From IMG/VR virus record IMGVR_UViG_3300028886_000055, positions 1-64,000 of that record: a DNA stretch of 64,000 nucleotides; one strand, written 5' to 3'. The notes beneath the pieces were generated by a model. The model was not told the DNA's origin, searched no databases, and saw only the letters and a program-made list of their open reading frames with translations. Source of the DNA: a virus. Taxonomy: Duplodnaviria; Caudoviricetes. Below, in pieces: positions 8,313 to 38,214 of this stretch. A program made the translations under genes and the position numbers. Numbering within the stretch: the stretch's first letter is position 1; each line of letters starts with the position of its first letter.

Positions 8313-8313
8313 A

Positions 8314-10000: not shown

Positions 10001-11025
10001 AGAATACTATTAATTATTATTTTAATGGATTATTAAAGAATGATGTAAGTATAGAAGAATATAGTGATGATGCTTTTATGTATCGTCTATTCTATGAAAT
10101 TCATGGTACAGTACCATATGTAATGTATTTCTTTGATGGAATTGACGAGGACGATAACGAGGAATTAATTAATGGTGAATTTGATTGGAAAGAAACTAGT
10201 AAGCTTATTAAAAAGATTCCTGGATGTGAAACTTATAAGTGGAAAGGTAATACAATTTACTATACTGATGATTGGATTTGCCATAAAGGGACTATTTTTA
10301 ATATAACTCCAGATATTCCAGAAGAATTATCTAATTGTATTCAAATAACTAAAAAGGATACAGCTAATCTCATCTTTGTATCGGTTTCTAATAAAGGGCA
10401 ATTCATTAAACGTTTATTGCCTGTCAATGAACTTGACATTGATTATGATATAAATTATAATGAAGATTTTCCGCATGAAAGAATTGAGGAAATACTCACA
10501 GGTGATAAGTCTTCTCTTTTACTTATGTTCGGGATTCCTGGTACTGGTAAAACTTCGTTTCTACGTAAAATGATTAAGGATCATCCTGAGCAAAAGTTCT
10601 ATTGGTTAGATAGTAGTATGTTTAGTATGATTAATAGTACTGAGTTTATGGAGTTCCTACTCGATAGTAAAGGTGGAGTATTTGTTCTTGAGGATTGTGA
10701 ATCCGTTGTTAAGGATAGAAATACAAATTATAACAATTTGATCACTCCTATTCTCAATATTTCTGACGGTATGCTTGGTGATTCTTTAAAGTTAAAATTC
10801 TTCTGTACCTTTAATACTAGTCTTAAAAACATAGATCAAGCATTACTTAGAAAAGGTAGGTTATCATTAAAATATGAATTTGGTAAGCTAAAGAAAGATC
10901 GAGTTCAGAAATTATTCGATAAACTTGGTATTGAAGCAACTGCTACTCAAGATATGGCTCTTTGTGATGTTTATAATTATCTTGAAGATAATGGCCAAAA
11001 AGAAGCGAAGAAGATTGGATTTTGA
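9997..11025 (+). CDS. AAA+ ATPase
   Basis: Walker A GIPGTGKTS, Walker B VLEDCE, ILNISDG, TFN...IDQALLRKGRL, C-terminal KKIGF. Confidence 0.9.
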   Translation: MKNTINYYFNGLLKNDVSIEEYSDDAFMYRLFYEIHGTVPYVMYFFDGIDEDDNEELINGEFDWKETSKLIKKIPGCETYKWKGNTIYYTDDWICHKGTIFNITPDIPEELSNCIQITKKDTANLIFVSVSNKGQFIKRLLPVNELDIDYDINYNEDFPHERIEEILTGDKSSLLLMFGIPGTGKTSFLRKMIKDHPEQKFYWLDSSMFSMINSTEFMEFLLDSKGGVFVLEDCESVVKDRNTNYNNLITPILNISDGMLGDSLKLKFFCTFNTSLKNIDQALLRKGRLSLKYEFGKLKKDRVQKLFDKLGIEATATQDMALCDVYNYLEDNGQKEAKKIGF

Positions 11026-11302: not shown

Positions 11303-11343
11303 AAAAGGATTATCAGACATTTGTCTGGTAATCCTTTTTTTTT
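11303..11343. terminator. bidirectional intrinsic terminator between the convergent arms
   Basis: AAAAGGATTATCAGACA-TT-TGTCTGGTAATCCTTTTTTTTT: long hairpin with A- and T-tracts on either side, located where + and - genes converge. Confidence 0.85.
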
Positions 11344-14300
11344 CATGCTAATGAGTTATTCGTGGCTTCTGACATTTTCTACAAACCTCTCCATAATCCA
11401 CTAGTACTTCTATATGCCGCAGAATTAGTATAAATCCACGCATCTAACGATTTTCCTACTTCATTTCCTGTAACAATATTCTTTCCAGCTTTCCAAGTAG
11501 ATTTTACAAAGTTAGCTGCAGTAGCATACGCAGGAACTTCTGAATCCATTATATTTCCACCAAAAACATTCAATAAATTAAAGTTATCAGCAGAACCGTT
11601 TATTGCTCGATAAACCATATTAAATCCTTCGTCTGATATAGCTCTACCTAAAGTATATGGAGATTTATCTTTCTTTCTATTTTCTTTCCACATTGAAAGT
11701 AAGGTTTTAACAATACCTCCGAGAATTGCCCACATTAACAACTTGTATGCAAGTAATCTTAAATTTTGACGTTTAGCATCACAGTCTTGAACATTTTTCC
11801 AAGCTCCAATCAATCCTAAATTTTTGGTATCTCTGCAAAAATCTCTTAATGTATAAAATATTCCTTCCATGTAAGATTTAGCAACATCCATAACTGGTTC
11901 TCTAGGATCGTTTGGTTCTAATTCACTTTCTGGAACGGGTATTAAACTTTCTTCTCCGTTAACATCTATAACTCTTTTCCAAAATAAAAGATTTCCATCA
12001 GCATCAGTAGCTTGTTTTCTAACATTTGTTTCATACTCTTTAGGTGACAAAAACCATTGTGTTTTGTTTGCTGTAAGATATGTAGAAAATTGTAAAAATA
12101 AAGAGCCTAACGCATGCTTTTCTGCTTGAATTCTTAACTCGTGATCATAATAGCCATAAAGTCTATCGGCAAAAGATTTTAACGCTACTATTTCTTTAGG
12201 AGCGTAAGGTTCTGGTAAAGCATCACCTTCCTTTAAATTATATCCAGCTTCATTGAAATCTCGTAACATGGATAAGTATAAACCTTGCTATTTCGAATCT
12301 GTACATTTTGTACCATCCCAAGTAGAAAAACGTTTATCTTTTTTCATATTATATTTTAATCCGTTCTCATAACTACAAGCATCAAAACATCCATCATGTT
12401 TCATTTTAGCTATTAAAATAACCATTCTATTTGTATAGTCACCAGCTGTTGTAGTCCAGAATAATTTATCTTTAAAGTTAAATAATCCAACTTTACCAGA
12501 TTTTGTTTTTCTAGCCAATTGCGCATAATCCATATCTGAAATACCAAATGCTGCATTTAAAGATTCTAATAATGTAACACCGGCTAAACTTTCTGTACTA
12601 TCCTTTATTACAACTTTATAAGCATCTATATAATCAGCTTTTGTAAAACCTTTTCCTTCACCCCAAGTATCCCCTACAAAAATACCAATACCTTTCCATA
12701 ATCCATCTAATACATCACGAATTGGAGCAAATACATTACCTACAATCATAGAATAACTTGCAGCCATTTTAGCTTTTCGGATCAAATGAGTATTTTCTTT
12801 TTCCTAAGCTGACAATAGTGTAACATTATGTATTGACTACTTTACGAAATTATCTAAATAATCTAAATTAACACTAGTATCTAATCCTGCCTAATTGCCC
12901 CAAGCTTCTATTAAGAATTTAGCTACTGCAATATGTGGTAATAATTTATCTAGTTCATCTCGTCGAATATAAGTTAACTCATGTTGTAGTACAATATTTT
13001 CTACATTAGTTTCCCAAAAACCTAATGGTTTAGATTGCAATAACTATGTTCGTTTATACTAATCGTCATCACTTTCAGTATATCTAATAAATATTTTATT
13101 TCTCTATTCTGCTTTCTAAAAAGCCTCATATTCAGACTCAGTATATACGTTTGCTTCTTCTCTTCGAAAAACTTCTTTAGCTTCTTTTCCAAAAGATACT
13201 ATTTCTTTAAATTCCTATTTAATAGTATCTTCTAGATGATCTCTATTTAGCTTTGAACCAGCAGCAGCTTCTTGAATAGGAACCCAATACCATTTCTATC
13301 CTCTTTTTTGTTTCTCTTTTTGAACTTCTGGAGAAGATTCTGAATAACTTTCTAATCCCCAACGTCTTCTATTTATTATCCATAATACTTTTCTTAAAAA
13401 TTTCTTCTCTGTATCAGATAATGTAGTATCAGTATCAGGGTTTTTAAATACTAAATTAGGATTTAATTTTCCATCTTTTTCTTCAAATAGGTTTCTATAT
13501 AATATAGACTAATTTCCTAATGTTAAATTTTGGGATTGTGAATATCCTTTATCCTTCCATAATTTTTTAACGTGATTTTCAAAGAAATCGTCTTTAAAAT
13601 GTACGAAAGTTCTTCTAATTTTTTGAAAACTTTGTAAAGCACTATTAGTTAAATTTGCTTCATTTCTATAAGGTATCACATCTGCTGTTACAGTCATAGA
13701 TCCATTAAACAAAGTATTTTTACTAGCTTGTCCAATAGTTTGCATTTCTTGAATTCCATACCAATCTCCTTTTGCATACATATAAGTTTGCAATATTATT
13801 AAATACAAATTTAATAGTTCTAATTTCTATTTATCACCTTGTACAGCACTTATAGCATTTGCATATCCATCTTTTAAAAATTCTCCAGGAGATTTATCAG
13901 CTGTAATCAGCTGAATTATTTTCATACATTCTTCTGCTACAATCTATCTATTTAATACCTATAATTTTTCAATTCTTTCTTGAATAGTATGTAATAAAGA
14001 CTAATCACTTATTGCAACATGTCCTAAAGTTGTTATAACGTGATTTTTTAAGTTTTCAATATCTGAAATAAATGCTTTTTCTAACTGTGCAATATTTGTA
14101 GTTACTCCAGCTTCTTTACATAGCTGTTTATAATCTGCTATTAACATTGAGTTTTGAATACTTAAGGTATTACCTGTAAAAGGATTCATTACTTTAAGTT
14201 CTCCAATGTGTTCATCTTTTAATTCAGACCAACATTCATCTAAAGCTACCAACAATTCCATAAATTTGATATTTCCTTGTGTAGCCTATAATTTTACTTT

Positions 14301-15941
14301 TCCAGAAATCTAATGGTTCTTTTTAAATGCTCCAAGTATTGTATTTCCAAAACCTAAATTTATAGTATCATTTAAATTATCTTCTCCCGTTAATATGATA
14401 AAATCAATTTGTCCAGTATTTTTGTTTTGAAAAGCTCCAATTCCTAAAGCTTCTAATTTAGGTAATGCTTTATATTCCCAATCATCAGTTGCATATTTAT
14501 TTAGTGCCATACTAATTCTGCCAGCACTTGAACTATTTGAAGATATAGATGTAAGAGATGCGTGATTGTTTATTACATTTTGTATTTTTCTTAAAAATAA
14601 GCCTAATTTATTTATATCAGCTTTCTTTTCAGCATCAATTACTTTAGCGACTTTTTCTCTTAACTCAGTATTAGTTTCTGCTGGAGAACTTTCTTTTACA
14701 TAATAAATATTACCATGCCTATCCTAAAATTCGTAGGACATTCCTGGTTTAGTAGATATAACTACATATTTTTTTATAAAATTAGTAACTTTTCTAGATC
14801 TAGAATCCTATACAATATTATGAGTTGGAAATAATTTCTATACTTTACTAGTAACATCGTGTGTTATTACCCCATTGAAATCAGCTTCATTTAACGTGAC
14901 AGGGATAAGGTTATTTAAATCTCTCCAAATTTCTCCAACATAAGGATCTAATCTAGAACTCTTATCTCTTCTTAATGCAATAGTTCTATCTACTATTTCG
15001 CCGAATGCTATTTCTTTTAATGTAGTATCATCATTTTCAAAGAACTAAACAGGAACAATATTTAATGTCATATTTTTAATATTGTATCCTTTCTATGCCA
15101 ATACTTGTCTAATAGCTCCAAGATAGTAATCTCTTTTTTGTCTCTTTACGTCTGGCTATTCTAATTCATTTTTCGCAGAAGATTTAAATAAAAATACGTG
15201 AGGTACACCATAACTATCAATAGCTACTAAATCTATATTTACATATAATTTTTTAGAAGTTCCGTTTAAGTCTGCTGTTAAACTTACATTTGGAATTATA
15301 TGTTCTACATTCACACCAGTAAGTGTTAGTATTTTATTTCTAACTTTCTATAGCTAACTTAAAAAATTAGAAAGCATAGCGTCACTTTTTAGCCATTCGT
15401 CCTATATTTCTGAAGGAAATGTACTTCTTATAACTCTTTTGATACCTTCTAATGTTCTAGATGTAGTATCATTAAAATAATTATTTAAAAGAATGTGTAA
15501 ATAATATGCTCTAGTTTCAGTTCTTTCAAACGATTCAAATAGTTTTTTTATTTCTTCGTCAGTTAATTTGTTTTCATTTTTTAACGTTGAAGCTAATTTT
15601 TCTGGATCGTAAGGTTCTGTAAACGGAGTCATTCCGTCTATTTTTTTTCCACCTTCTATAAACTAATGTAGTTCTATATAATCTTCATTATCGGGAATAT
15701 CATATAACTCGTCTTTATTTTTTGAATAAGTAGCTCTTTTAATCCTTGTTGTAGATTTTAATTCTTTTAATCTTTTAATGGCATCTTCTTGACTTAAATC
15801 TTTACTTTTTATTACATCTGATTCGTTAGTAATGTCAAATTTATCAGCTATTTCATTACGTAATGCATCAAAATCTGTAAAACTTTCAGTGCCAGTTAGC
15901 TCTCCATTTTCTATTATATTTAAAATCCATGTACAGTCCAT
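11343..15941 (-). CDS. giant virion cargo protein A (~1532 aa, TAG=Gln)
   Basis: Seven track fragments share one frame and each ends in TAG. Start MDCTWIL at 15941, TGA at 11343. Has a degenerate PD-(D/E)XK-like segment and a hydrophobic helix near the C-terminus. Confidence 0.85.
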
Positions 15942-15943
15942 AA

Positions 15944-18484
15944 TTATTCACATATTTCTTCTATATAACTTTCAGAATGTTCTTTAAATTGAGAATTTCT
16001 AATCATTCTAGCAATCAAATTAGTAACCTATCTTGATTCTGTTGCTTCTATAAGTTCATTTGCATCTACTGGTTCTTTTTCAAAAATCATTGATCCAAAG
16101 TTTTCAATTATCTGCTATAAATCTTTAGTTAATATCTATTCTAATTCAAGATTTTCGGCACCCTATCCTAATGCAAACGCTTTAATTATTATATTGCGAA
16201 ATTCTTTTTTAAACCTATTTAAGGTTTTCTCGATATTTTCGTTATTATAAAAATTAATGACAATTTGCTATCCGAATTCTTTACCCAATAAAGTCACAAA
16301 TAATTCTTCTTGTAAATCCAACTCAGACCTGTAATCTCTAAATTTTCTAAAACGTTTTATCTAATCCTAATAATCAGGTAATTGTGTTACTAAACTAGTT
16401 AAACTATAATATGTTTTAGGATCTCTTACTTTTAAAATACCTAAAGCTAAATGCATATATTCGTGAATAACATCTCCTGCATCTCCACGTTCAATATTTA
16501 CATAAATTTGTCCATTAAAAATAAACGCTCTTGCTCTTTTAACACTATCTGGAAATCGTACTTTTTTTCCATTAATTTCCATACCATTTTTAATATCGTC
16601 ATCATTAATAATAGTACAATTTACTCCAAAATGATCTTTAAGATGATTTACTACTGCTAATAAATCTCTTTTTATATTAAACCTCGGGATGGTTATAAGT
16701 TGAGAAGGATGCGCCTCTTTTACTTCACTAAAAGTAACAGTACTCAGGTTTTTCTTTTTTCCTTGTTTAACATTCTCTACTTTTAAAATCTTAAATTCGC
16801 TTACTTCCATCTCATCTAAAACCTAGTCTATTATTTTATATCTAGTAGTAGGATCTACTGAGAATATAGTAGAAAGTTCTAATATTTCTCCAGAATCTAT
16901 TTTATCCTAAAGTAAATCAGTAGCTCTCATTAGAAAAAATTCTAAGTCAGATATTTCCTACATTCTTTCTAAATATTTCTATTTCTAAGCACTATCTTTA
17001 AAAAAATCAAAATATCCAAAACTGTTTAAAAACTAATCTACGTCTACAGTCATATCCTACCAAAATAAATTGGTAGGTAATTTAGCTGGTTTCCATCTAC
17101 TACTCAATATACTAATATCATGTATAAATTTTACCTTTGGATAATGTTTAATAGGAATCATACTGCCAGGTGTAAGCTTAGAATTTTTAATATCTACCTA
17201 TAATTTTTTAAATCCCGAAACTAATATTTTATTTTTAAAATTATAAATAGTAGTTCTAGCTCCAGAATAAGTTTTATCTGAATTTCGTATTTTTCTTCTT
17301 TCTTTAGTAATAAAAGCTCTAGCTTCTCTAAGATTATCAAATCTTCTTAATCGTTCACTGAGTTTTTCAGTTGAAAACATTAGTGATTGTCCAACATAAT
17401 ATTGACCTAAATGTTCTACAATATTAAATCCAAAATTATATTCTATCAACCTAGTAGATGATCCATAAAAATTTGGACTTAATAAATGAATATTGGGATT
17501 TTTTACAGGATCAAAAAATAACGTTTTTAATTTATAATGATCGGTTGCTTCATACTATATCCTTATAAATAAATTATTATAACTCAATTTTGTATTGAAA
17601 TCATAAATCCATTGTTGCAATATTTCTAACGGATCACCTTCTAAACTATCTTCTTTTATAATTTTTTCTAGTTCTTCTTTTGAAATAATATCACCTTTTA
17701 TGATTCTACTTAAATACTTTTCAGATGGATCTGAAGAATCTGGATTTAAAAGAGCCTAAGATTGAATTGGAGTAATAGTATCACGTATAACATCCTCTAA
17801 AATCTATAACTAGTCTTTATCAACGTTTGATTTATAATAAATGTCTCCAAATATATAAACTAATAATTCAGATAATCTTCTTCCAGAATCTTCTATTTCA
17901 GATAATCTATTCATTATTATTTTTAGTCTAGTGTTAGATGTATATTTATCAGCTTTCTCTAATAAATCATCAAATATATTCTATACAGCTTTAATCAATT
18001 CGGAATATCTTTGATCTTGTTTCAATAATGCTTTATATGCTATAGACATTTTCATTACTTGTATAAGCTTTGAATTTCTAGTTTCAGAATTACGTAAAAT
18101 AGAATCGTCTATTACAAATTTTAATTCTCCATCTTGACCTATCTACATATCTAAACCTGTTCCAGATAAATTATTTACAAGTAAAATATTATCCATAAAG
18201 TGTGATTCATCAAATATATCCTAATTGTTAAGATTTGGATTTAAATATTTTGTAATTAATTTAAATAAAGATGAATTTCCAACTTCAGTTCCTAATGTAT
18301 TATTAGAAAGATTAAATACACGAGGCACATATCCGGATTTATCTAACAAATCTATTAACTCACCTAATTGATCTGAGTTAAATAAATCTGTAATTATATT
18401 TTCTAAATTATTTCTATTTTCTTCAGAAATAGGGATGGATATTTCACCACCCCTAACATTAATTATAGCTTCACAGTTTGCCAT
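15944..18484 (-). CDS. virion cargo protein B with zincin metallopeptidase motif (~846 aa, TAG=Gln)
   Basis: Fragments 16367, 17198 and 18221 are in frame. Start MANCEAI, end EEICE-TAA. RAFIFNGQIYVN...DVIHEYMH (HExxH). Confidence 0.85.
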
Positions 18485-18485
18485 G

Positions 18486-21400
18486 TTATGAACAATTTAC
18501 ATTAATAGATAATATTCTTGACATCATTAGATTCTTAACTTTTTCTTTTATTTGCTCTAAGTTCATATTCTTTGTAATTTTATGTTTTAATAAACTTATT
18601 TCCATATCTGAAATTCCTTGTAATCCGCTATAGTTACTATTCAAATGGCTTCCTAGACTTTTTACAAAAGATAATCCAGGGAATCTATTATAGTTAGGTT
18701 CGTCTGGCTATTCTTCCGATGTAATATTTCCAGATCTTACATAAAGATCGAACCCGCCTGTATCAGGATTATATATTCTAACATATATAAAATCTTTATA
18801 TTCATATGAATTATAATTATATCTAGTAACAACAGGAGCAGCTGCTTTCTAGAAAGGTTCTACAGTATACACAGGAATTAATGGTTCTCTACTTTTATCT
18901 TTAGCATCCATTTGTCTAAAATAATCAGGAATTAAAGTAGATTCATCATTTACAAAAGGTATAAGAATAGGATTTAAATTGTCTCTAGTTAGCTTATCTT
19001 TGGATGTTATTAAGTCATATATGAAAAACCAATCAATCAACGGTCTTCCAAAAATTTTTATTTTCCCAATCTTAGGGATTTCTTTTAAATACAAATTATA
19101 TTTATCCTAACTATATCCAGATTTAGCAACTTCAAAGAAATTAATAAATCCAAATTTGCTTACAATAATATCCATACCAGAATAACTATCTCTAGTTGTT
19201 CCATTAGCAAGATCATGTAATAAAACACTATCTGCTAGTTTCATTTTATCACTTTGATCAAGATCTATTAATAATGCAGGATTCTTTAATAATTCTAAGA
19301 AAGTATTTTCAAACCAATATTTAAATTTAGATATCGATTCAGATGAAGAAATATTTATTAATTCATCTTCCTCTTGAATTTTTCTCTTTAGGCTATCGTT
19401 CTATCTTCTAACTGTCATGGTTCCACTTTCTATTGGAAAAGATATATCCTATTGAACAAGATATCCATAAATCATCTATGAATCAATAACTCTATTTATC
19501 TAATTCCACTAACTCTTATTAACAGTAGCTTTACTTGTTTTTGGATCTTTTTCAGCATTTAATAAATCTTTTCGTATTTTACGCATCAATTCAAATCTAC
19601 TTGAAACAGCATCAATACTTCTTACACCATTAAATATATCAATAAAAGCCTAACGTATATGAGGAGAATGCCAAATAACATCTAACACATTAAAACAAGT
19701 TTTAGAATTATCTGCTAAAGCAATAGCAGTAAGCCTATATTGTTCATCATTGAAAAATCTTTTTAAATCAAAGTTCGTTAATAACTCATTATTTTGAACA
19801 TAGCTTGATTTTGAAAGTTTTGAATCAGCTTTCTAAAACTGTTTAGTTATATCTGCTTCTAGCTTTACTAAATATTCAATAAAATCATGTGGTACTGGAG
19901 GAACTCCCTAGTTTATTTTTAAAAATCTAGCTAACATACTTATTTCATCACCACCTTTCAATAATGTTTTAAAAGTTTCCATTCTTTGTGGACTAGTTTC
20001 TGGATCATAATGCTACTAGTATTCTAAAAATTTTATTTTAAATCTATTTAAAGCTTGCCAATTATATGTATTAGTTAACGGTGTTTCTGTAAAAGCATCA
20101 AAAAACTCCTATGTAGTAAGTATTAACTACCCATCTTCATTAGTATATGATCGTTTGGCTTTTTCTTTATAAATAACTGATAAATATTGTATAAATCTTT
20201 CTTTTGTCCAATTTTTAAATTCAGGATATTTTTTCTCCAATCTGTTTAGAATTTCTTTCCAAGAGTCTTCAGATAAAATTGGCATACGAGGTCCAATTAA
20301 GAATCTTTCAATCGTACTATTTATATATGTTTGTTTTGTAGGATCAAACATGTTTTCTCTACATTGATTTAATATAAAATCGATATCGTCAGAAATCATT
20401 AATTCTGCAACATCTCTTAAATCAATATTCAATATTGCAGAGAATAAATATATTTTCATATATTTAGGATCAGCATTAATTTTTCTTAAAATTAATTCTT
20501 TAGCATTATCTGTTGCAGCAGAAATAATCGCAGATATAGTAAGAGCAGTATTTTCAGAACCTTCGTCGTATTTTATTAGCTATTCTTTAATTTCTTCCTC
20601 TGGAACACCTCTCGAATTTAAATATTTTCTTATTGCATTTTTTATATTATCATTTTGATCTGGTGTTAATACCGAGTTATTTATAGAAGGTAAAACAGTT
20701 ATTCTTTCTTTTGATTTTCCAGGAAAAGTTATTGTAAAATTAAAAGGAAGACGTCTTAATCTATGAATATCTCCAGATGAAATACTATCCATATAATGAT
20801 AAATCAATGCAAAATTATCTTTAGCACCATTTGCACCAACACCAATACCCATTTTTCCAGATAAGTTATCTTCAGTAGTAATATTTACCATAGAAGGGCA
20901 TGAAGAAATTAATCTTCTATTTCTTAAACCAAGTGGGGATTTTTCAGATGCTGGACCTAATACACCAAAAGATACTGGAGATTGAGCATTAATCAAATTC
21001 CTTGGGTCTGTAACGACATCCATAATACCGTATGCAACTACATTCTTAAATATTTGCTAAATTTCATATCTTGAAGGTTTAGATCTATCATATTTAACAC
21101 TATCATCTAAATTAGAGAAGTATGTAGTATGTCTGTTAATAGCTTTCATTAATACTTCTTCTACAAGATCTCTTTTAATAGTTTTTTTGTCTTGTTTTTC
21201 AGATACTATGTGTTTCTTTCTTACTTCATTATTTATGAATACTAATTCATTGTCACCAACTAACTTAAGAATTTCTACTATATCATTATGTCCACTACCA
21301 TAAAACAACTACTATTCGTTACCATTATATTTACTTAACAATCTATCTGCTAGAAAACTAATATCTACACCTTTCTTAGACTGAGTTACAGTTTTACCAG

Positions 21401-24400
21401 AAGGAATAGGAATTGTCCTTGATTTTTCAAATTCTTCTACATTTGACATTATGAAGAATGGAGACCATGTATACAATAAACCAGAATCTTTAATTGATAA
21501 AGCCATAGCATACGCTTTATCAATATCATAATCAGAACCCTGAATCCAAGTCTGAAAATGTGATACTTGAATTTGATTGCTATCTGTGTCTAAGAATCCC
21601 ACTACACGCATTTTCATAAACGATTGTTGCGTCTATGCTGGAATACGAGCCACTATTAATTTTAACGATTCTTTAAATGAATTACAAATAGATCTCGCTT
21701 TATTTTCATCCATCTAAAATGCATCATTAATAGTTGTTATAATTGAAGTTTTAGTAATTTCATCATCTTTTAACTATTCCATAATCTATTTATGATTTTT
21801 AGGAATTCTAAGATGTGATTTTTCTTCTAATTCGGTGAAGAAATCGAGTAATGTATTTTTATCTATTTTAGTATGCTAATTTATTATTAACGATTCATTA
21901 TCTTTAGAATAAATTTTAGAGGCAGCTTTAGCATCTACAGCATAATATATTGTTTCATTAGTGTTACCTGGAGATAATATTTGCATTACACAATCTTCCC
22001 AAACAGGTTCTTGTTTAGTAGTACCGTCTTTCTAAATGACTTCTTTTGTAATAACTTTTCCATCCTTATCACGTTTAACTCTACTTCTAGGATAAAGATT
22101 ATTTCCATTAGCATCCTATACCCATTGAAATTCTCCATCATTATGTACATATACATAATTTACTGGTATTATCTTACTTTCATCAGGTTTAGTAAATGTG
22201 ACATAAGTATGTTTTCGTGTAGAATTAGTAAAACATAGATCCCAACCTCTTTCTATTGCAGGCTAATTTGCTTCTCTAAATCTTTCTAAGAAAAATTTAT
22301 AATCTTTCTCTATAATATCTGCAATACTATCACCAGCTCTTAATTTAAATTGTGTTGCAAAAATTCTAGGAATCTTTGCTTCATAATCGGTAATTCTTAA
22401 TGTATTCTTTTGATAAGGATGTAATTTTCCATCTTCTCCAGTAAATAATCCATTATATACATTATTTAATTCCTACTAAATTGCTCTTTCTGCTAACTTC
22501 TTTTCTAATTCAGAACTATCTTCACTTTGTAAAATTTCGATATTTTTCTTTATAATAGGTAATAACCATAAGTTTCTACGAGTACCTTTAATAGTTTTAG
22601 TTTCACCTTCTATAGTTATTACGTTTCCACTATTTTCTGTAACTGTAAATACCCACTATCCATCTTTATTATACTATTGATTAATAGTTCCAGTTATTAT
22701 TCCAACTTTTTTAGTCTTATCGTTTATAACTTTTAGGCCTTCTAATTTTCCATCCGCATTATAAACTAATTCATAAGAACTATTTTGAAATATCTTTCTA
22801 GGCTCAGAACTAACAACATTTTTAATAACAAATTCTTGTCTATTAGAATCCTTAAAAGAAATAGTAGTTGGCTATAGATCCCTAGGTGTTGAATAATCAA
22901 CAATAAATCCTTCATATTTATCAGGATTACTATATTCATATAAAGTATTAGGATTATCTATGTATACAGATTCTATATTAGCTGGATGATTCAAATCCTA
23001 AATATAAGTTTCTGAAGTTGGATTATATATTCTAGGAGTACCTGTATCATCTTTTTTTATAATAAATACAACCTAACCTAACTATAATTCGCTAGGAGTT
23101 TTAACAACATCTTTTTTTCCAGCAACGTAACTTTTAATCGTTGCGTGTTTGATAAAGTTTTTAAAATTCTAAACAACCTATCTATTTGGATCTTCGAACT
23201 AATTTTCTCCAAATTCTGGTCTTGCTTCTGGTTCTGTTTGAACATACTAAATAATTAATGTTAGAATATCTTTAACCTATGCTGGTAATGTTTCACTTAT
23301 GTTAATTACTCCATTTAAATCATAGATATTTTTAACAATTTTATATAGTTTACTTAATACATCAATATCAGGATATTTCTAATCTTCCGTTATTAAAGGG
23401 TTGTTTCCATCTAAAACCTATGTTATAGTATTATTTTTATTGTCTAATGTAACTTCTAATTTTCGTGGATATCTTTTACCATCTTTGTCAAAAGCATATC
23501 CTAAATCCTAGCTATAAACATTTCCTTGATTATCTACATTATTTATCCAAGCTAACATGTCAGAGAAACTCCTAATTCCAGATCCTGGAATATTGAAACT
23601 TTTAGTCCAACCAAAAGATGGAACCATAATTAATCCAGATCCTGGAAATTTACGTTTAATAGCTACAGCATTTATATTAGATATTATAGTAGTTACAGCC
23701 TAAACAAATGCACTAGCTTCTGAAAATGGAAGAATCATATCATCGATATTAAATTCACCTTTCGCTTTATTAAATAAATCCTATAATGCTAAAATATGTT
23801 CTTGATACAAACTTACAGCACCGTCTTTATGTTTAAAGTTTTTAATTAATATTTTACCAATAATTTTATATAATTCTTCTTTTCTTCCAGATACTTTTGC
23901 AAAATTTTCTAAAGCTCTTAATAACTCGAGTGTTTTTGCAGCAGATATTTTTGCTAAAGTTTCATATATAGTTTTTGCCTATTTGAAAGATGTACCTTTT
24001 TCTACTAATGCAGATATAACCTAAGTAAATTCAGTGAGTGTAGATTCACCATCAGTAACTAAATGATCATAATCCTAAACCATTAAATATCCAGAAGTAC
24101 GTAATGTCATAGTATTCAATTCTGTAGGATCTTTACTATTCCACATACTTTTAGGATTAATATTAGCAGCTCCGTTTTTAATTGCAGAATTATTTACTAA
24201 TGATGCTATAAACTTACCTTTTAAAGGCTAATATGTATTACTCTAGGTCTAATAATTTTCTGTTGTAGCTTCTCCTACACGTTCACCTTCAGTAACATAT
24301 GTTCTACCTATATTGTTTACATAATTGACTAAAGTATATAAAGATGTATCTCCATATACAAATTCACCATTTATGAAATTTTCAGAAAAACATCCGCCAA

Positions 24401-27400
24401 GAATTTTATATAATTCCCATAAACTATTTATAGTTACAGTTTCTGTTGTTACAGTATCGTCAATTGCCTTTACTTTACCATTACTATTAAACACTTGTAC
24501 TTTTTCAATAGTATATCTATGGTCTCCTTCAGCTTTTTTAATACTTCTTAATTGATAGTGTCTTCCATTTTCATAATAATAAATAGGATTTCCATCACTC
24601 ATGTCAGATACATTGATTGTTTCCTATTGTAAATTCTTAGTAAGATCTATTTTCCAAGTATCGTAACGTATGAGATTACCTTCATTATCGTATATAGGAA
24701 CGTCTGTAACTTTTCTTCGTTCTGTCCTAATAGGTTTTCCGTTTTCATCTTTTTCTAAAACTTGAGTATATTCTGGAATAGCATCTAATCCATCTCCATA
24801 TTCTTCATCAAATTTTAAATCAGTCATCAACTAGAATAACCTTAAAAGATTTGCAGAGTTAGGACCTTCATAATTTAAAGAATCACGTATTGTTTTATTC
24901 ATCATTGCAAATGATGCGTATTTTATTAAAATATTTGATCCATATTCACCATGCTAATCTCTAACAATACTTTTTATTACATCTTTGCCAGCACAATCTT
25001 GCTAAGATAACTAAACTAATAAAGTAAATATAGGATTTGTAATTGCAGATCCATCGTTCCCGTCTAATTCTTCTGTTTTTCCTAAGATGTTAAACGCAGT
25101 TGCTTGTAAATCTTCCATTATGGCAATTCTAACTTTTGGAGGAACTCCCTATATATCATCTTGTAATAGAAGAACTCCAGGAACACCTAAATCAACAGTT
25201 CGTTTAAAAGAAGAGTTAGTTCTTGCTGACTCTTCCATAACCATTAAATCATTCCAACTAGTTGCTGTTGAAGCGTATTTTTTTAATTTACCGGTACCGT
25301 GACCTATTTCAGATCCAGATGAAATTCCTTTTAGATTTTGAATCAATAAATAGTTACTATAAAAATATCGTTCTATTATAGGATTAATAGTACAACTTCT
25401 ATTTAATCTATTTTTATCAAACACTGGATTACCATCACTATCTTTTGCTAAAATTATATAACCAGTATTTTCATCAATCCATTCATCAGCTAAAGTTACA
25501 GTATCCTAAGATTTTTTCCCTTCTTGAAGCTTTATACCATTAGCATCAAATGATTCAAAAATCTATTTAAGTGAGTTATCTTCACTAGGTAATAATTTAA
25601 AATCTGTAGATAAATCTTTAACGTATTCAATAATTTGGCTTCTAAACTAGGCATCTATATTATTAGTACCTTCTGCAAACAGATATTGAGAGTAATGATA
25701 TATTTGATAGTTAATTCCATATTTAAATCCAGGAATATAAGATTTAGAATAATGAATTTCTTTTATAAATTTTTCATTTATATTGTTAGCACATTTATTT
25801 AAAACTGATATTCTTTCATCTGTAGCTGCTAACATAAAACCAGCAAATACTTCATAACTCCAAGTATTAATATCTGTGATGCTTGCATTTTGTATAGCAG
25901 ATACAAATTCCATTAGTTTTGATTTAATATCTGCATTAGCAACTCCAGTAACAGATATATTTTTAGCATCTTCTATCCAACGCTTAAAAATATCAGGATT
26001 AGTTTCAGCTAAATTACGTATTATATTTCTATAACTATTAACTATATTTTTACCAATTTGTCTATACTATTTCCCAACTGTATTTTGAATAATAGTTTTT
26101 AATTGAGCTATAGGAATAGTTCCAAAATCAATATACTACTAAGTACCATTAATAGTAAATTTAAGTTTATTTTTTGGTATTTTGAAATTAGGAATTGTAG
26201 TTTTATCAGCATAAGTAATATGATGTATATAAACATCAGTAGCATCTGAATTAATTAAAGGTAATAAAAATCTATTAAATAAAGCATCGTAATTCAATTC
26301 TGCAGCAGACATTTCCGATACTTTTTTAGTTTTACCGAATTGATTAGTTGCGTCTACATAAACTCTTGGAGGTTCTAGTAGTAATGAATTAGCACCATGT
26401 TCAGTAAAAAATAAATTATCATTTAAAACTCCAATATTTTCCTCTTTATATCCACGTTTTGATTTTACTTTACGTTTAGTGTCTCGTAATATATCTAACC
26501 CGTAATGATATAAATGATTTATCATAGTAAACTATCTAGTCATTGGTAATTTATTACCTTGTTTATCAGTCACATATCTAAAATGTCTTCCTAATATATC
26601 ATTATATGCTTCTGCTAATAAATTTATGGGTAGAGATGCTTGTCCCCATATAAACTTAATACTATCAGATCCTTCATTATAATAATCAGATACTTTACCG
26701 TTTACAAAACCTATTGTTGAATTTAAAAATTTTGTAATTTCAAATTCTGGATTATCTTTTCTTATATCATTAATTTTATTTACAAGCAATATATTTCTCG
26801 CAGAAATATTAAGTAATTCTGAAATACCCTACTGGATAACTCTAATTGTAGCAGTATCTTTATTACCTGTATATCCATACATCTAAAGCCACTATAATAA
26901 AATAGGTAGCTCTTCTCCGGCTAAATCTACTCCTGGAAGTAAATCAGTTATTGCTTCTAATAATTTTAAAGTTATTAAATAACCTTTATTATTTGGATCT
27001 GTTAAATCTAAATTGCCTATTTTAGTTACTTTAGACTACGTATTACGTTTTGTTGTAAAATATTCTCTAATTTCTTTTATTGATGGGAATTGTAAAGATA
27101 ATTCTTCCTTATCAATATCTTTTTCTACAAACTTTCCAGTTTTTTCATCTTTTACTATTTCTGTTTTCTATCCTTCTGTAAATATTTTAAGATTTGTAAA
27201 AGTTGGATTCCCATCAACATATTCTACAATCTATATTCTTTCATCATTAGAAATATTAGTAGTAGTTATACCATCAGATAACCTTTTAGGATTTATTAGT
27301 AACTATATAGATTCTTTCTCGTTTAACTTTAAAGTTAGAAATATACCACCAGATGCTTTTCTTAAACTATTTGGAGATTCTTTTGGGATAGGATTTCCAT

Positions 27401-28988
27401 CAGAATATTTAGATTCTTCCTTATAAAAACTTAAATTATATTTATTTATGTTTCTTTTTATCGTTTTTGATGTTTTTAAAGCTTGGCTTGAAGCAGCATC
27501 AAATTGAATTCTAGTTCTCTAAATATTACCTGTATTTAAATCTTTCACAACAGTTATACCTAATTTAGAATCAAATTCTACCTACACATAATCAGTTTTC
27601 TCGTTCCTTAATATAGCTCCTACTAAAGTAGATACAATACTAAACTATGTATTAACTTTTGATCCATATATTCTATTTCTATGTTCAATTTTCATTAAAG
27701 AATAAGCTCCATTAAAGAATCTCTAATATATAGAATTAAGTATGATTCTGTCACTATCAGTCAGATGAAATGCGGATTGATAATTTTTAGTAGGTCTTGT
27801 TAAAATTCTCAATATTTTTAACATACTACTTACTGGTTTTCTAGGTAAATTCTAAATTGGCTCTAATATTTCTTTAGCATCCTCTAATGATCTGACATTT
27901 TCCAAATTAGTTACTAACTTAATTTTATGAAACGCCATCATTACATCATCATAAGTTACATAACCGTCCTATTTTCCATTTAAGTCAATCTTAGGTGTGC
28001 CCTCGATTAACATCTTTCCGAGCACACCCATTTGACTTTCACCGTCATCCATTCTATCAGTTCCAAAAGGTTTCTTAGTTCCTCTATCTAAACTTATAGA
28101 ATAAACATTATCTTTTAATCCTGCAAATAATACTCCTTTATTTATACTTAATAATTTTGGAAATTTTTCATGTACAAAATTATCAAATCCCATACTTTTT
28201 CCATCAGAACTTAATAATATAAATGCTTTTAATGCTCGAATTCTTTTTTTAGCTTTAGGTGAATTATCATATGCATCTAAATATAATTCGTTCATTTTTG
28301 CATCATTATAGTGTTTGTTTGCAAGATTTATTATTTCATTATACCATTTTAGACCGTCAGCACTAATATTGCCAACTGAATTTAATAAACTGTCTGGTTT
28401 AACAGGAATAGCTATTCCAGAATCTTCAAGATAATTAGCAAGATCTGTTAATAGTTCTATTTTATAATCTCTAATAGCTCTATTTAACTCTTTAGGATTA
28501 TTAATAAGAATTGTACGAGTATCATAGTCTACAATCAATTTGTCAGATAATTCTTGTTTTATTTGTTCAACAATGCGAGTTTTGAAATTAATTCTATCCT
28601 TGAAAAGATCTCTCAATCTTTCATTTAATGACTATAATAACTCTGGTTCTTCATAATCCTAGTTATCATTACTTGTTTTATCTTCGTCTATATTTTCTCT
28701 ATTTTCAGATTCAGTTTTTGTAGGAATATTTTCCTCCACATATTGTCTTAAAGCATCTCTATAAGCATCTTCAGGACTTCTTCCAGGATCTATGGCTCTT
28801 ATTATATTCTTTATAGCAAGAACCTCTTCAGGATCGCTTAAGTTAGAATCTGAAAAAAACTTATCAAAAACTTTCTTTGCTATAACATTAGGATTATTTT
28901 CATCCGAAAATGCAATTTCGCAACTTATATCATCCTGTAAATTTGAGAGTTCCTCATCAGTTAAAAATTTTATACTCTTACAACTCAT
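18486..28988 (-). CDS. virion-associated two-barrel RNA polymerase (~3500 aa, TAG=Gln)
   Basis: Thirteen fragments share one frame. Catalytic GSDYDIDK (DxDxD, 21519-21533) is preceded by VARIPA(Q)TQQSF. ELDGNDGSAITNP and KRKFPG segments present. crAss-like vRNAPs such as phi14:2 gp66 have DFDID. Confidence 0.9.
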
Positions 28989-28992
28989 ATTA

Positions 28993-31900
28993 TTATAAAT
29001 TTACAAATTTGCAACTCAAAGAGTCTTGTGTAATAACTCTGTGTACTAATTTTCCATATACTTTTATTGACATGTTATTAGTACTCATATAAATAATTCT
29101 TAAATCTCTAAGAAACTTCATTAAATCATTAACTCCAAGTTTATCTAAACTAATTACTATTCCTGGAACAGCTTTATTTAAAACTTCCATAACTCTGTTC
29201 CAAGCATCTAACGTATTTGAATTAGTAAGATCAAACTAATCTTTATTATCTTCTTTTATAAAATTTAAAGCATCCTTAAAGATTTGATCAATTTCATTAT
29301 TATAAATTCTATGTTCCCCTTTATTCTATAAACTTTCTTCACTAAATGTAATTACGTTAGTAGTTTCAGGGCTACCATCGATATGTAATAGCTATTTTGC
29401 TCCATCTGACGTAATATTAAAACTTTTCTAGATTCCATCTTCAATATATGTAAAGAATCCGTTTTCTAGTGTTATAGATTGTTCTCCGATAAATTTAGCT
29501 AAAGTTTCTCTAGTTTCAATTTTAATAGACCTATCTGTATTATCTGTTATAATATTTATCTTTATAGGAGCTTTAGTACCATTACGTTTAATGAATCTAA
29601 ATAAAGTACTTTTATAAGTAAAAATTTCTGCAAGTTTATTTCTAAAAGTAAATAATAAATGTTTATCAGGATCTCGATCATTTCTAAATAATTCTTCTAA
29701 CTAATCTTTAGGATATCTAGATTTAGTTTCAAGTATATTTTTATCTCGTGCATCAAAAGACTAAAGCCAAGCATCCTTTATTGATTTTAAAAATTTCTTT
29801 TCATCTTCATCTGCATCTTCTTCAGTAATTCCGAGATCTTTTAGAAAATCAGTTACAGATTTAGGTAATTCTGCTTTACTATATCTACTATCTGGAGCTT
29901 TTACATCAGCAGCTTCTTCCATCTCTAACTCTACAACCATGTTCGGATCCTAGATCAATACATTTACTTTAAATTGTTCTAAATAATTTAAACTAAATAA
30001 AGGTCTATATTTTTTCTATATAGTTTCACTTCCAGAAGTATCTTTTTCAATTTTGGCATGATAAAATACACCATAAGGAAAACGTACAAATTTTTTAATA
30101 GTATCTCCTATACCAGTTTTGTCTCTATCAAGTGAATAATTAGAATATATTGTGTCTCCCACATATTTCTTACCATGAAACATGATGTTTAGCATACTAT
30201 TAAATATATTTATTCCAGCAACATTTAATTCTCCATCATTAATAGCACGCATTTTACTAGGAAGTATATTATCTGCCATATCTCTGAATGCTTCAATATC
30301 GGCTTCTACTATACTCTATGTTGTTACATCAGAACTAGTATCTTCAAAAACATCATGTTCTCCACTATTTTCTCTAGTTATATTAACTCTACGTATTGCT
30401 CTATATGCCTAAGATAATAAAGTAATCATTAAATTACCTTTTGCAATTTGCAGTTCCGTACCGTTTATATCAATATGTCCTGCAGCAACTGATTTAATTT
30501 TATCTCCGATCATTACTTGTTTATGACCTTCTATTAATTCAGTTTTAGACATAGATGCTAAATTAGAAGATATACCGTATGTACCTCCAACTAAATCAAT
30601 TATATCATCTAGTAATCCGACCCACAAGTCTAAAACTTCTTTGCTTTTAATTAATACTCTATTACTTCTAGAACCTATTGCAATTGCAGTATCCTAACTA
30701 GTAACTAACTATACTATTCCATTTTTTCCAATAGTACCATTCCATTCACTATCAGGTTTATGAGCTAATTTCTCCTATAAACTTATAAGTTCTGCACGCC
30801 AATTCCAAATGCTAGTAAACATATTAATACCAGTCATATTAGAAGCCTAAGTATCCAAAAATTTAGCAAGAGATTGACCTTCAAGGCTATTTATTACTTC
30901 TTTTTGTATATCAAATAATCCACGAGTGATTGTACCATTACTTCTAAAACTGGTAACCCACTATCCTTCAAAATCAAGAATTACTTTTCTAATTTGTGCT
31001 CCAGTTTTACCGCCAGCTTTATTCTATTCATAAAGTTTTGGCAAATCTTCAGGTTGAATTTTAATCCACTTTTCTTCAATTTCATCCCAACGATAATGAT
31101 CATTTGTTACAAACATTACAGGTTTACCTGCATATCGTCTTTCATCAGGATCTTCATTAGCACTACTTACATAAATCGGACTTGTTATTGCATTAGGATT
31201 AAGTTTTTTAAACTATTCCATGTTATAAAAAGTCTCACTGCCTAATCTATGTAAATTAGTAAAATTTGTTGGAGGTTGTGCTTTAACTTTTATTTCAATT
31301 TCAGGATTACTTGAATTAAGTTTTGCTTTTTGTTCTGCAATATAATTAGCGTAAGCTCTTGCATCAGCTCTACTTTCTATTGTTTTTGCCCCAGCTATCC
31401 ATGTTTCTGGATCAGCTATTGCGCCTAACGTAATTCTTTTTTTGCCATATCTTGTATTAAATTCATACACTAGCTATCCAACAATTTTATCTAAATTAAA
31501 ATCAGGGATAGGTGTTATTGGTTTATCGCTATTATTAAATTCATGTTTTAATACGATTTTAAATTCTCCACTCTAATCATTAATAGCTGCGTATAAATCA
31601 TTTACAATATTAGAAGCTTCATCAGTTTCATCATCAGGATCTGGAAATAAGTCATTGTTATCTAATATTATTTGATTAAGAATCTCGCTAGCTTCTTCTA
31701 AATTATGATATAATAAAACACTCTTTATTTGTAAAAATACTTTTTCTATTTTTTCCTTATCAGAATTTTCAGAAAATAAACTCTAAAGCATTTGTAAATC
31801 TCCGTTCTCATCACCCTATCTAGTATAAAATCCATAAGTTCTTATCTTATTTTTAATAATTTTTCCTTCTGAATTTTTTTCTACTTCTATTTCTGGTGTA

Positions 31901-34900
31901 GGATCAGTTAATGGTGTTTCCTCTTCTTTATCGTTTATAACAGGATCGTCCTCCATTTTTTCAGAATTTCTATTATAATCTGATAATTTAGTTTCTATTA
32001 ATTCTAAAATTTTTAATTCCGAATCAGGTACATCAGTTTTTTCATTTATATGTTTTTCAAGAGAATCCTTAAAGGTAGTAAAATTTGATAATAAATCATC
32101 ATAATCATCTCCTAAAAATGTTTTAAATTCTGGAGATTCGAGCCATCCGTCAATTACTTGAGCACGATCTTTTATTATTCCTAATTTAGTAATTAAATCT
32201 GAGGTTTTTGAAATTATTTCTTCAAACTATGCACGAAGTTTATTGATTTCATCTAATAAATGGTCAAAATCAGCATCATCTTTTACTTGCTTATTTATTT
32301 CACCTAACTGTTGAAGTAAATTATCTTTATTAGTACGACTTATTTCTGAATTCTCTATATCAGTAGTAAGTTGAGTTATGGCTTTTGTTACTCCTTCTAA
32401 GTCTGCAGTAATGACTGGTGGTGTTGGAGGAATTGGTGAAGCAGATTTATAATCTTCCAATTGATTAATACTCTCCGCTAATTCTTCTAATCTTTTATCA
32501 GACAATTCTTTTAATTTTTCTGCAAGTTTATCTGCATCAAGACTTTTTTCAACATAAGATGTAGGTATAGTTTTTAAATTTGGAAAAATCTTAGTTAAAT
32601 TTTTATCAACAATTAACGTTCCAGTTTCTGAACGAGTTAACATTGTATATAGATTTGAAACATAATCACTTATATCAGATCCATGTTTTTCAAAATTGAT
32701 GTCTACTATAACGTAAGGTGCTTCCAAACCCTATACTTTATCTGGAGTTAAAGACTAAATTTTTTCAGAAAATTCCGATTTTAATTTTGTAATTATAGGA
32801 TTTTCACTTTCATCATAAACATATATTAACTATTCTCCAGTTGCAAGTAATTTTCTGATTTTTGATTCTTCTAAACTAGAAACAATTTTTTCACCTGATA
32901 ATGGTTCATCTTCTCCTTCATAGTATAACAATGGCTTGGTATCAAACAATATTTGTAGATCATTCTATATTTTAGGAATAGTCGTCTTGTTTATTTCCTA
33001 ATCTGCATAACTAGCCATTGTTACAAGAACCTCTCCATTTTTGCGTTTCTAAATAGTTTTAGAACGCATACTTACACTTAATTTAGGAGCTTCTATAAAG
33101 AAAGCATTAAATCGATTTGGATTTTCTATTCGTTTAACTTCTTTAGAATTATCTTTATATTCATAACCATTCTAAAAAGAATCTCCGGAAAAATTTACAA
33201 TTATATTTAATTTCTATGCTAATGCAGATAATATCAAACCTGTAGCAATATCTAAATGAGTATACTCATCAACAATAATATTTCGAATTTTATCAGTATT
33301 TCTAAATTTTATTTTTGATAATAATTTTTCTAATTTTGTTTCATAAGTATCCTTATCAAAAGAAAACAACTTACTATTTTCTTTATTTTCAATATATTTC
33401 TTGAATTCTGCAAATTCTTCAGGATCTAAAATATGTTCAATAAAAGATTCTATAGTAAACTATTTTTCTGCATTAATTATACTATTCGCATTTTTGACCT
33501 ATGTATCATAAGGAGCAATTACATACGTATCAGTTCTAGCTTTATCTACATAATTACATTGTAGTTCATTTAATATAACTAGCATGGTTGTTTTTCCAGC
33601 ACCGCCTACACCGTTTACTCCAAATATATTAAGTAGTCTATGTAATTTTGTTTCAATAGGTCCTGGAACTTTATCAAATATTTCACTACTACTTACAAAA
33701 TCTTTAAATAATTCTTTGTTTTTAGAAAAAGCTGTACCTAAAAATAATAAATGTTCCTAAGCAGGTAGTGGTACTTTACTATATTTTGGCAATACAGATT
33801 GATAAAGTTGGTTAAATTCTTTTTTAGGTAAAGATATTACCGCAAATAAATAGTTTGCAACATCTATAGGCATTAAAGATTCAGTATGCTAATCAATTAT
33901 AGTAGACTATCTTAAAGATAAATCTCGTTTGTTAAAAATTTTTATAACTTGCGGGACAATTATTTTTGCTAATTCTACATCCGATAAACCAGTTTTATCT
34001 TTTATGTATAAATAATTGTTAGCAACTTTCTATTCAAGTTCATCTAATTCAAGTCTTCCTGATTCATCAACATCTTCTTTATCAATTAATTTCTAAAGGA
34101 TAGGCGTATCTATATCAGAAATGCCATCAAATAATTTTATACCATTAACTTGAATAGAATGTAATTCACTATAGTCTCCAACTCCTTTTAATACGCTACC
34201 TAACATTCTATTTAGATTCTATCCTGTTTGTTTTTGGGCATTTAAAGAATTTGCAGAATTTAAATTAGATATTCTTTTGAGAAATTCTAACTATGTTCTT
34301 AACTAGTTTATATCACCTTTCATCATTTCTGCTAAATCCGATCTAATTATTCCTAGCTATTTAATACCAGATAATTTAGATATAAAATCATTATATATAG
34401 CATTATGTCCATAAAGTTTATTTAAAGATAACTCTTCACTAGATGCTGCGTTTATTAGAGATTCAACTATATCTAAAGCAGTTAATGCAGATTCTATTTC
34501 TTTCATCTAGACATTATCTAGTTCAAAACCTTCAATACTAGATTTATCAAGAATCCCATTTAATTTTTCTAGTAAGTCAAACACTGTAGAATTTGTACTA
34601 CCTGTTTCAACCTAAATTTGCTTTAAAAATTCGTATAATGGACTGTTTTTAACTGTAGATAACTCAGAATCTAATTCTTTCTATAATATATAATTTTCAG
34701 TATTTCTTGCGATTTCAGAAAATGCTAAAACAGAAGATATTATTTTATTTTTTACATCTTCATAAAGCTAAAATTCATAATCATCTGCCTAATCTAATTC
34801 TAAAATTGCTTCAAATGTACTAAATAAATCTCTAATATTATTTTCTATTTCTGCATCATTATCTCCGTTTATTTTATCGATTATTTTCTATATATCATTA

Positions 34901-37900: not shown

Positions 37901-38214
37901 TTTTTTATTTTAGCTCCAACTGGTCTAGTTGAATTATACATATCATATTCATAGTCCTAAGCCATCTTAGAAACAATATCATCATCATTTAGTGATTGGT
38001 ATGATGCAGCTGCAATATTATAAGCTTGTTCAAATTTGGCTTTATCAAATTTACCATCTGTTTGATATAGCTATTGTATATATTTATTATTTTCATAATA
38101 ACTTTTCTCTCGGAGTTGTGTATTCTCTGGAGTTAATCCTACCTATGAAAATTGAGATATTTCAAAGGTAGGGTTTTCTGATATAGCTAAAAACCAATCG
38201 TTTTCTTTATTCAT
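28993..38214 (-). CDS. giant virion cargo protein D with superfamily-1 helicase domain (~3073 aa, TAG=Gln)
   Basis: Fragments in frame from MNKENDW (38214) to SCKFVNL-TAA. Walker A GVGGAGKTT (~33586-33612), Walker B IIVDEYTH, motif III SGDSF(Q), motif V KV(Q)GLE, motif VI LYTMLTRS. Confidence 0.87.

Follow-up and report, generated by a model that had tools for sequence, protein, structure and literature searches.

How crAss-like phages, the most abundant viruses of the human gut, pack a megadalton protein cargo in fixed amounts and pass it through the tail is an open question. We take it up here for one locus, a stretch of 64,000 nt from the virus record IMGVR_UViG_3300028886_000055 (hereafter the window; the phage genome measures 139.7 kb), in which four adjoining giant genes, D, RNAP (for RNA polymerase), B and A, encode proteins that carry a cysteine close to every terminus facing a neighbour. 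Judged by sequence comparison, this pattern is confirmed as a deep, order-wide family rule, and a pairing of the facing termini across the junctions is strongly supported; a disulfide chemistry and a role in ejection are plausible but unproven. On balance, we think it fairly likely that the facing cysteine pairs link D, RNAP, B and A end to end, a disulfide being the most likely form of the bond.

Cysteines at the inner termini of four giant proteins

With translation table 11 the giant-gene region contains nearly no open reading frames (ORFs); reading TAG as glutamine opens a run of minus-strand genes, but reading TGA as tryptophan does not open the region. The use of TAG as glutamine is confined to the minus-strand (late, virion) genes at 11343-64000, with each giant gene containing 22-79 in-frame TAG codons, whereas the plus-strand early arm (1-11025) has none. 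The four products sum to 8,951 aa, and their genes are separated by gaps of 4, 1 and 2 nt (D/RNAP, RNAP/B and B/A respectively). The genes, and the cysteine codons at their junctions, are as follows:

28993..38214, minus strand: gene D, the 'head' of the chain; 3073 aa with TAG read as glutamine; superfamily 1 (SF1) helicase-like core; 2 cysteines
18486..28988, minus strand: giant virion-type RNA polymerase (RNAP); 3500 aa with TAG read as glutamine; 13 cysteines
15944..18484, minus strand: gene B; 846 aa; 3 cysteines; zincin-like (HExxH) C-terminal domain
11343..15941, minus strand: gene A, the 'tail' of the chain; 1532 aa; 9 cysteines, one at +3 and none near the C-terminus
29011..29013, minus strand: cysteine codon (TGC) of D at position -6; C-terminal partner at junction 1
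28980..28982, minus strand: Cys3 codon of RNAP; N-terminal partner at junction 1 (gap 4 nt)
18492..18494, minus strand: Cys3499 codon of RNAP (-2); C-terminal partner at junction 2
18473..18475, minus strand: Cys4 codon of B; N-terminal partner at junction 2 (gap 1 nt); an invariant column in the B family
15950..15952, minus strand: Cys845 codon of B (-2); C-terminal partner at junction 3
15933..15935, minus strand: Cys3 codon of A; N-terminal partner at junction 3 (gap 2 nt); an invariant column in the A family

The D protein starts MNKENDW, with a cysteine-free N-terminus, and ends ...LSCKFVNL*, placing Cys3068 6 residues from its C-terminus. RNAP runs from MSCKSI to ...INVNCS* (cysteines at +3 and -2) and B from MANCEA to ...EEICE* (+4 and -2), whilst A starts MDCTWI and ends ...ATNNSLA; a cysteine thus lies within 6 residues of the end at six of the six inner termini and at neither of the two outer ones. 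A first-pass annotation of the window had reported just these termini, gaps and counts, and with TAG read as glutamine they read exactly as it gave them. The start codons are likewise backed by conservation of an M-x(1-3)-C start in homologues.

Set against the composition of these proteins, the placement is striking. The four giants contain 27 cysteines in 8,951 residues (0.30%, versus 1.26% genome-wide), and the chance that all six inner ends would carry one is ~8e-12 at the proteins' own internal cysteine frequency, or ~1.5e-7 at the genome-wide 1.26%. Five of the six codons concerned are TGT. The remaining 19 minus-strand ORFs of the window all lack a cysteine within 6 residues of either end. 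The boundary immediately upstream of the block serves as an internal control, since the E->D junction is equally tight (a 2-nt gap) and has a cysteine on neither side; the F->E junction is likewise tight and cysteine-free. The genes in question are:

38217..45226, minus strand: upstream cargo-type genes E (625 aa) and F (1711 aa); zero cysteines in both

The complete lack of cysteine in E and F is consistent with these being ejected proteins that lie outside the linked chain.

Identity of the block

Around its catalytic motif, the window RNAP aligns with crAss001 gp50, phi14:2 g066, p-crAssphage gp44, DAC15 gene 63 and crAss002 gp33, and it shows the two-barrel RNAP motif of the DFDID type, GxD[FY]D[IV]D; phi14:2 gp66 carries the DFDID motif (10.1101/2020.03.07.982082). 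Pfam matches to D are with Viral_helicase1, UvrD_C_2 and AAA_30. The C-terminal domain of B has invariant residues H674/E675/H678 together with E726/E727 (HExxH...EE), and zincin is the annotation already given to this domain in p-crAssphage gp45 and in orthologues of phi14:2 gp65. The two motifs lie at:

21516..21539, minus strand: RNAP catalytic motif GSDYDIDK (RNAP residues 2484-2491), uninterrupted here; the DxDxD metal site of crAss-like two-barrel RNAPs
16451..16465, minus strand: HEYMH motif of B; H674, E675 and H678 invariant in the family

From the RNAP motif and alignments, the helicase core and the HExxH domain, we therefore identify the block as the RNAP cargo block of a crAss-like phage. 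Other searches added little: Foldseek gave no significant match of the B model to the PDB, only non-significant ones of zincin type; Pfam gave no match for A, the helicase core of D being the only domain found among the four giants; and PHROGs offered no family for D, RNAP, B or A.

The N-terminal region of A, which shows a D...D-x-K pattern, shares homology with part of the head proteins crAss001 gp47 (1594-1882) and DAC15 gene 61, and domains have therefore moved between head and tail proteins. A conserved IDLL...HIYDFK stretch at A residues ~230-255, with D237 invariant and K253 nearly so, resembles a PD-(D/E)XK nuclease motif.

For phi14:2 and crAss001, mass spectrometry and transcription assays have shown that proteins of the RNAP block are present in virions and are delivered to the cell (PMC10172136; 10.1101/2020.03.07.982082), where gp66 of phi14:2 transcribes the early genes after its translocation (10.1101/2020.03.07.982082). 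By homology and gene position, the cargo proteins of the window are probably also packed into the virion and delivered to the host.

Terminal cysteines in related phages

A tblastn search of phage records found one relative; a search for related loci with B alone found nothing. In MT835470, which uses the standard code and is ~30% identical, the rule holds with still fewer cysteines, which number one in the whole D orthologue (...QNCKLNI*), two in B (MSC.../...ENC*) and one in A (MAC...). Characterised phages follow the same pattern:

crAss001: gp47 (head), one cysteine at -3; gp50 (RNAP), three cysteines, at +5, at -9 and at an internal position; gp49 (tail), one cysteine at +5
phi14:2: g067 (head), one cysteine, the last residue; g066 (RNAP), two cysteines, at +3 and -2; g065 (tail), one cysteine at +3

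Thus, four of the five cysteines of crAss001 gp47/gp50/gp49 sit at inner termini, and the phi14:2 proteins g067/g066/g065 contain only 4 cysteines in 5,398 aa, all of them inner-terminal. The rule also holds in DAC15 and p-crAssphage, and in crAss002 provided that gp33 is taken to begin at an internal in-frame MSC. The annotated start of gp33 (L022 17088-17186) is probably 32 codons too early, the in-frame MSCTPSN fitting the family-wide M-x-C start.

An alignment-based scan for the RNAP core yielded 80 IMG/VR loci (several of them cited below by L number) from gut and environmental metagenomes, variously using code 11, TAG as glutamine or TGA as tryptophan. Their 164 non-redundant giant ORFs have a cysteine content of 0.22%, versus 1.54% in neighbouring ORFs, and wherever a giant has only one cysteine (45/45) it lies within 15 residues of an end. 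Amongst 115 distinct junctions, cysteines are present on both sides in 106, on one side in 0 and on neither side in 9; all of a further 21 junctions whose next ORF extends beyond the locus are paired as well. The number of terminal cysteines is 2, 4 or 6, tracking the number of junctions. Seven of the nine cysteine-free cases are interruptions of the RNAP frame, four of them in the zone of the catalytic motif, where introns are shown in relatives, and three in L030, L083 and L053 (one of its two), and the other two are boundaries to upstream cysteine-free proteins outside the chain. Apparent exceptions have simple explanations: over-long called starts in crAss002 gp33, L076, L078 and L099, each with an in-frame MSC or MDC; cysteines sitting 9-15 residues in, for L098, L088, L100, L086, L034 and L038; and, for the cysteine-free L066, a contig end that cuts the protein off.

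The B and A families can be followed further still. A profile search of 1.84 billion representatives with B returned 598 relatives, and in the best 150 of these, each from a different 50%-identity cluster, a cysteine falls within the last 4 residues of every C-terminally complete homologue (125/125) and an M-x(0-5)-C start is present in 113 of 147, the remainder looking truncated or fused. Where both terminal cysteines are present, 45 of 97 homologues have exactly two cysteines, and internal cysteine stands at 0.13%; C4 and C845 of B are invariant alignment columns, alongside the HExxH residues. For A, homology searching gave only 5 further proteins, all with a cysteine at +3 or +4 and none at the C-terminus, and Cys3 is invariant in a 24-sequence alignment. 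The residues that flank the terminal cysteines are poorly conserved, no non-cysteine position exceeding ~25%, with a weak beta-strand-like alternation beside the cysteine. That the terminal cysteines should be conserved in orthologues above background was something on which the first-pass annotation had made its proposal depend; across Crassvirales they are so, and by a wide margin.

Fusions, splits and interruptions of the giant genes

Lineages in which neighbouring proteins are fused were mapped by phmmer, as BLASTP was too insensitive. L072, a head+RNAP fusion of 3,618 aa, has one cysteine, at -2; the RNAP+tail fusions of L084 and L101 have one each, at +5 and +3 respectively; and the 5,608-aa protein of L095, shown by phmmer to be an RNAP+tail fusion, has none. 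From motif position and length, L095 would seem to include the head as well, although phmmer detected no head homology in it. In each phmmer-confirmed fusion the pair is missing exactly at the fused joint and the remaining terminal cysteines are kept, in line with the earlier expectation that cysteines should vanish at fused junctions. The reverse is seen in the window lineage, in which B is split from A and an extra cysteine pair is present there; phi14:2 g065, which combines the HExxH domain and the tail protein in one chain, has a single cysteine. The cysteines that appear and disappear together are those facing one another, a pattern that favours pairing across the junction over self-closure of the middle proteins.

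Gene breaks of another kind lack cysteines. In MT835470 the RNAP is interrupted at the catalytic motif by an insertion of ~1 kb, which sister contigs lack, and in L017 and L019 a group-I-like intron occupies the same position in the motif; such cysteine-free breaks are introns/insertions at the catalytic motif and therefore not protein ends. The intron splits the motif between GSDY and DIDK, at coordinates 14263-15322 in L001, 4112-4536 in L017 and 4316-4668 in L019, with none in the window (21516-21539). The MT835470 copy has a 234-aa ORF, and the presence of the intron varies among near-identical contigs (L002 vs L004).

A tethering model and its alternatives

Synthesising these observations, we propose a model for how the four proteins might be joined. 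At each boundary, a cysteine a few residues from the upstream C-terminus and a cysteine at position 3-5 of the downstream protein would form a direct covalent link, the disulfide arising once the proteins are sequestered in the capsid. Separately translated proteins would in this way become one head-to-tail, quasi-linear thread of ~1 MDa, equivalent to the single polyprotein of some lineages. Because the cysteines are so near the ends, the joint would be slim, with stubs of 1-6 residues, and could pass a narrow tail channel partly unfolded. The near-total loss of other cysteines would prevent mis-pairing and trapping by periplasmic oxidoreductases, and the reducing cytoplasm would then cut the links and release the subunits. 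The sequences themselves show the rule, its conservation, the all-or-none occurrence of the pairs, their disappearance on fusion and the fact that genes need not adjoin; the physical contact of the pairs, the disulfide chemistry, the timing and the function are all matters that we infer. If true, a conserved end-to-end tether would be a simple physical answer to the packing/passage problem, with one thread giving order and stoichiometry, and would explain both the purge of cysteines and the free splitting/fusing of the block among lineages.

A disulfide is favoured because crAss001 particles contain intermolecular disulfides, namely in the tail hubs, ring proteins R1/R2 and the gp57 dimer (PMC10172136), and because passage through the tail is argued to require partial unfolding of their cargo; how extrusion is ordered goes unexplained in that work (PMC10172136). 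In an AlphaFold2 model of B (predicted local distance difference test, pLDDT, 81.8), Cys3 of the modelled protein is the first residue of a strand (3-10) and Cys786 is part of an exposed tail that follows the last helix, such that both terminal cysteines appear accessible. Co-modelling of adjacent termini, as suggested by the first-pass annotation, was carried out for natural neighbours from the standard-code contig L019: the C-terminal domain of B (P0007) and the N-terminal 330 aa of A (P0155). The interaction prediction score from aligned errors (ipSAE) was 0.58 (0.50, 0.60 and 0.58 in individual runs) versus 0.00 for the best control, a result rated weak, as passes at or below 0.60 are more often wrong than right unless the pairing was likely beforehand; the mark itself is reached by 58/80 solved complexes and by 2/110 mismatches. 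Runs agreed on at least 43% of contacts, with a partner pLDDT of 74 or more. No interface contacts were reported.

More speculatively, Crassvirales in general may inject their RNAP machinery as one covalent pseudo-polyprotein of ~0.7-1 MDa, joined in the capsid by terminal disulfides, pulled through the tail in order and unlinked by host/phage thioredoxin. Gene fission and fusion would then be freely interchangeable in evolution, because a cysteine pair can replace a peptide bond. We put this broader proposal forward tentatively, and would place it somewhat short of an even chance.

Several points weigh against a disulfide tether. The complex prediction gave no interface and its support is weak, and the crAss001 virion study reports disulfides only in the tail (PMC10172136). 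An oxidant or catalyst is not obvious, because synthesis takes place in a reducing cytoplasm and in an anoxic gut, and the phage-encoded thioredoxin is a reductant. A single thiol per terminus could serve equally well as a metal ligand. The position of the terminal cysteine varies, reaching as far as -15 and +11 in some lineages, and a lone near-C-terminal cysteine with no facing partner identified is present in p-crAssphage gp47 and gp48 and in crAss002 gp30; not every terminal cysteine, therefore, needs a neighbour.

The main rival to the disulfide, although in our view an unlikely one, is that each facing pair bridges a metal ion (e.g. Zn, Fe or Cu(I)), with one thiolate from each terminus plus carboxylates or the N-terminal amine, in a site that dissolves on entry/unfolding. 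Pairing, parity and loss on fusion do not discriminate between the two chemistries, the acidic residues that often precede the C-terminal cysteine (E-x-C, EEC, NEC) would suit a metal site, and no oxidant would be needed in the reducing cytoplasm. Saying this, each terminus offers one cysteine, with no conserved histidine or second cysteine and with poorly conserved flanks, and a site of two thiolates would hold weakly were ~1 MDa to be pulled through a channel by it. The lone C-terminal cysteines of p-crAssphage gp47, gp48 and crAss002 gp30, and the weakness of the complex prediction as support for pairing, might instead point to a third partner bound by the terminal cysteines (the capsid interior, the portal, another cargo protein or a small molecule), or to a redox switch that acts after entry; we rate this lower again, as it leaves unexplained the strictness of the facing pairs (106 junctions with both, 0 with a single cysteine), the constant lack of cysteine at the head N-terminus and the tail C-terminus, and the way in which a fusion removes exactly the two cysteines of its own joint with the others staying.

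The per-genome parity of N- and C-terminal cysteines would be satisfied equally if the middle proteins were self-closed, each pairing its own N-terminal with its own C-terminal cysteine, and the head C-terminus paired with the tail N-terminus. The fusions make this very improbable: RNAP+tail fusion removes the cysteines of the RNAP C-terminus and the tail N-terminus, and head+RNAP fusion those of the head C-terminus and the RNAP N-terminus, so that each fusion would orphan two partners, and two-protein systems (p-crAssphage gp45/gp44, L084, L103) have no protein marked at both ends. Finally, the very tight junctions of the window (4, 1 and 2 nt) and the predominance of TGT amongst its codons (5/6) could hint at a signal in the nucleotide sequence, with TGT/TGC acting in translational coupling or re-initiation, or the pattern could be due to chance. 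Neither is, to our minds, seriously credible. The head proteins crAss001 gp47 and DAC15 gene 61 are encoded on the strand opposite to their partner and are still cysteine-ended, gaps at paired junctions range from -13 to +1086 nt with five exceeding 250 nt, the tight E->D and F->E junctions lack cysteines, and the distance from the cysteine to the stop or start codon varies; chance, for its part, has a probability of ~1e-7 or lower in the window alone and would have to account for the terminal position of the cysteine in all 45 single-cysteine giants. The opposite-strand head genes and the wide gaps imply that the rule acts at the level of protein, and they also amend the first-pass proposal of C-to-N linkage in gene order: the link between facing termini is supported, with the order following the termini and not the adjacency of the genes.

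Two further candidates were considered and rejected. A split intein or trans-splicing system does not fit, there being 0-5 residues after the upstream cysteine (up to 14 in outliers) and 1-4 before the downstream one, no conserved intein blocks and unconserved flanks. A fixed four-cysteine cluster is excluded by the count of terminal cysteines, which is instead 2, 4 or 6 according to junction number.

Comparison with known systems

The closest systems are the RNAP blocks of phi14:2 (g067-g066-g065, g066 being PDB 6VR4) and crAss001 (gp47/gp50/gp49), in which, as in the window, the giants adjoin structural genes, are extremely cysteine-poor and follow the same terminal-cysteine rule. The window differs from both in its number of proteins (four) and junctions (three), B having a gene of its own where phi14:2 g065 joins the HExxH domain to the tail protein, and in its recoding of TAG as glutamine, its much longer RNAP (3500 aa) and its identity of below ~35%; in crAss001, the N-terminal domain of A belongs instead to the head protein, gp47. 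The form particular to the window is a chain of four proteins and three junctions in a phage that recodes TAG. In some crAss-like phages the same domains form a single fused RNAP polyprotein, assumed to be cleaved into its components (10.1101/2020.03.07.982082), whereas the chain of the window is split into four genes; that fused forms lack the cysteine pairs suggests that the pairs replace a peptide bond.

The disulfides of the crAss001 virion are a precedent for inter-subunit bonds in particles assembled in a reducing cytoplasm, as proposed here, but they staple folded subunits of the tail/portal vertex, with none in cargo or at chain termini (PMC10172136). In Schitoviridae, the giant virion RNAP and its companion ejection proteins are cysteine-suppressed, as in the window: N4 gp50 and DEV gp71-gp73 are nearly cysteine-free, which has been read as an adaptation to passage through the envelope/periplasm (PMC11445570). 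There, however, cysteine is removed altogether and no terminal cysteines are described, whereas the window block keeps an invariant one at each facing end. We detected no sequence homology between N4-like ejection proteins and the crAss-like proteins studied here.

In di-chain AB toxins, one inter-chain disulfide holds the chains together during membrane translocation and cytosolic thioredoxin releases them. The logic proposed here is the same, in that a disulfide would hold unfolded cargo during translocation and cytosolic reduction would free it. There is no homology, and the toxin chains arise by nicking of one polypeptide, in contrast to the separate gene products, up to four of them, that would here travel through a phage tail.

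We found no mention of these terminal cysteines in the literature, as the first-pass annotation had supposed; neither the phi14:2 RNAP preprint, which never uses the word cysteine (10.1101/2020.03.07.982082), nor the crAss001 structure paper mentions them. The end-to-end tether that the comparative pattern suggests, probably a disulfide, is to our knowledge undescribed. A practical rule for annotation also follows, whereby M-x(1-3)-C marks the true start of a giant gene and a cysteine-free break in the RNAP signals an intron.

Other observations

The early arm of the window, which is not recoded, encodes an 80-aa thioredoxin (5546-5788, plus strand; Pfam PF00085, E-value 1e-11), and thioredoxin genes are likewise found in the early regions of L017/L018 and p-crAssphage (gp39, gp37). 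The window thioredoxin could be relevant to the reduction of the proposed links, or could simply serve nucleotide metabolism.

Smaller cargo-type proteins upstream of the RNAP block also end close to a lone cysteine in p-crAssphage (L020; gp47, ...KQSCR*; gp48, ...YRCGGHRR*) and crAss002 (L022; gp30, ...FRCGGKKKIA*), and no N-terminal partner is obvious for them. Beyond the window, in a minus-strand run of tail-spike genes (66994-71980), an 83-aa protein ends ...NRICT* and an 856-aa protein ends ...NNICS*; the proteins that follow them start M(T/K)xQEL..W without a cysteine, and this is therefore a separate, one-sided C-terminal cysteine motif.

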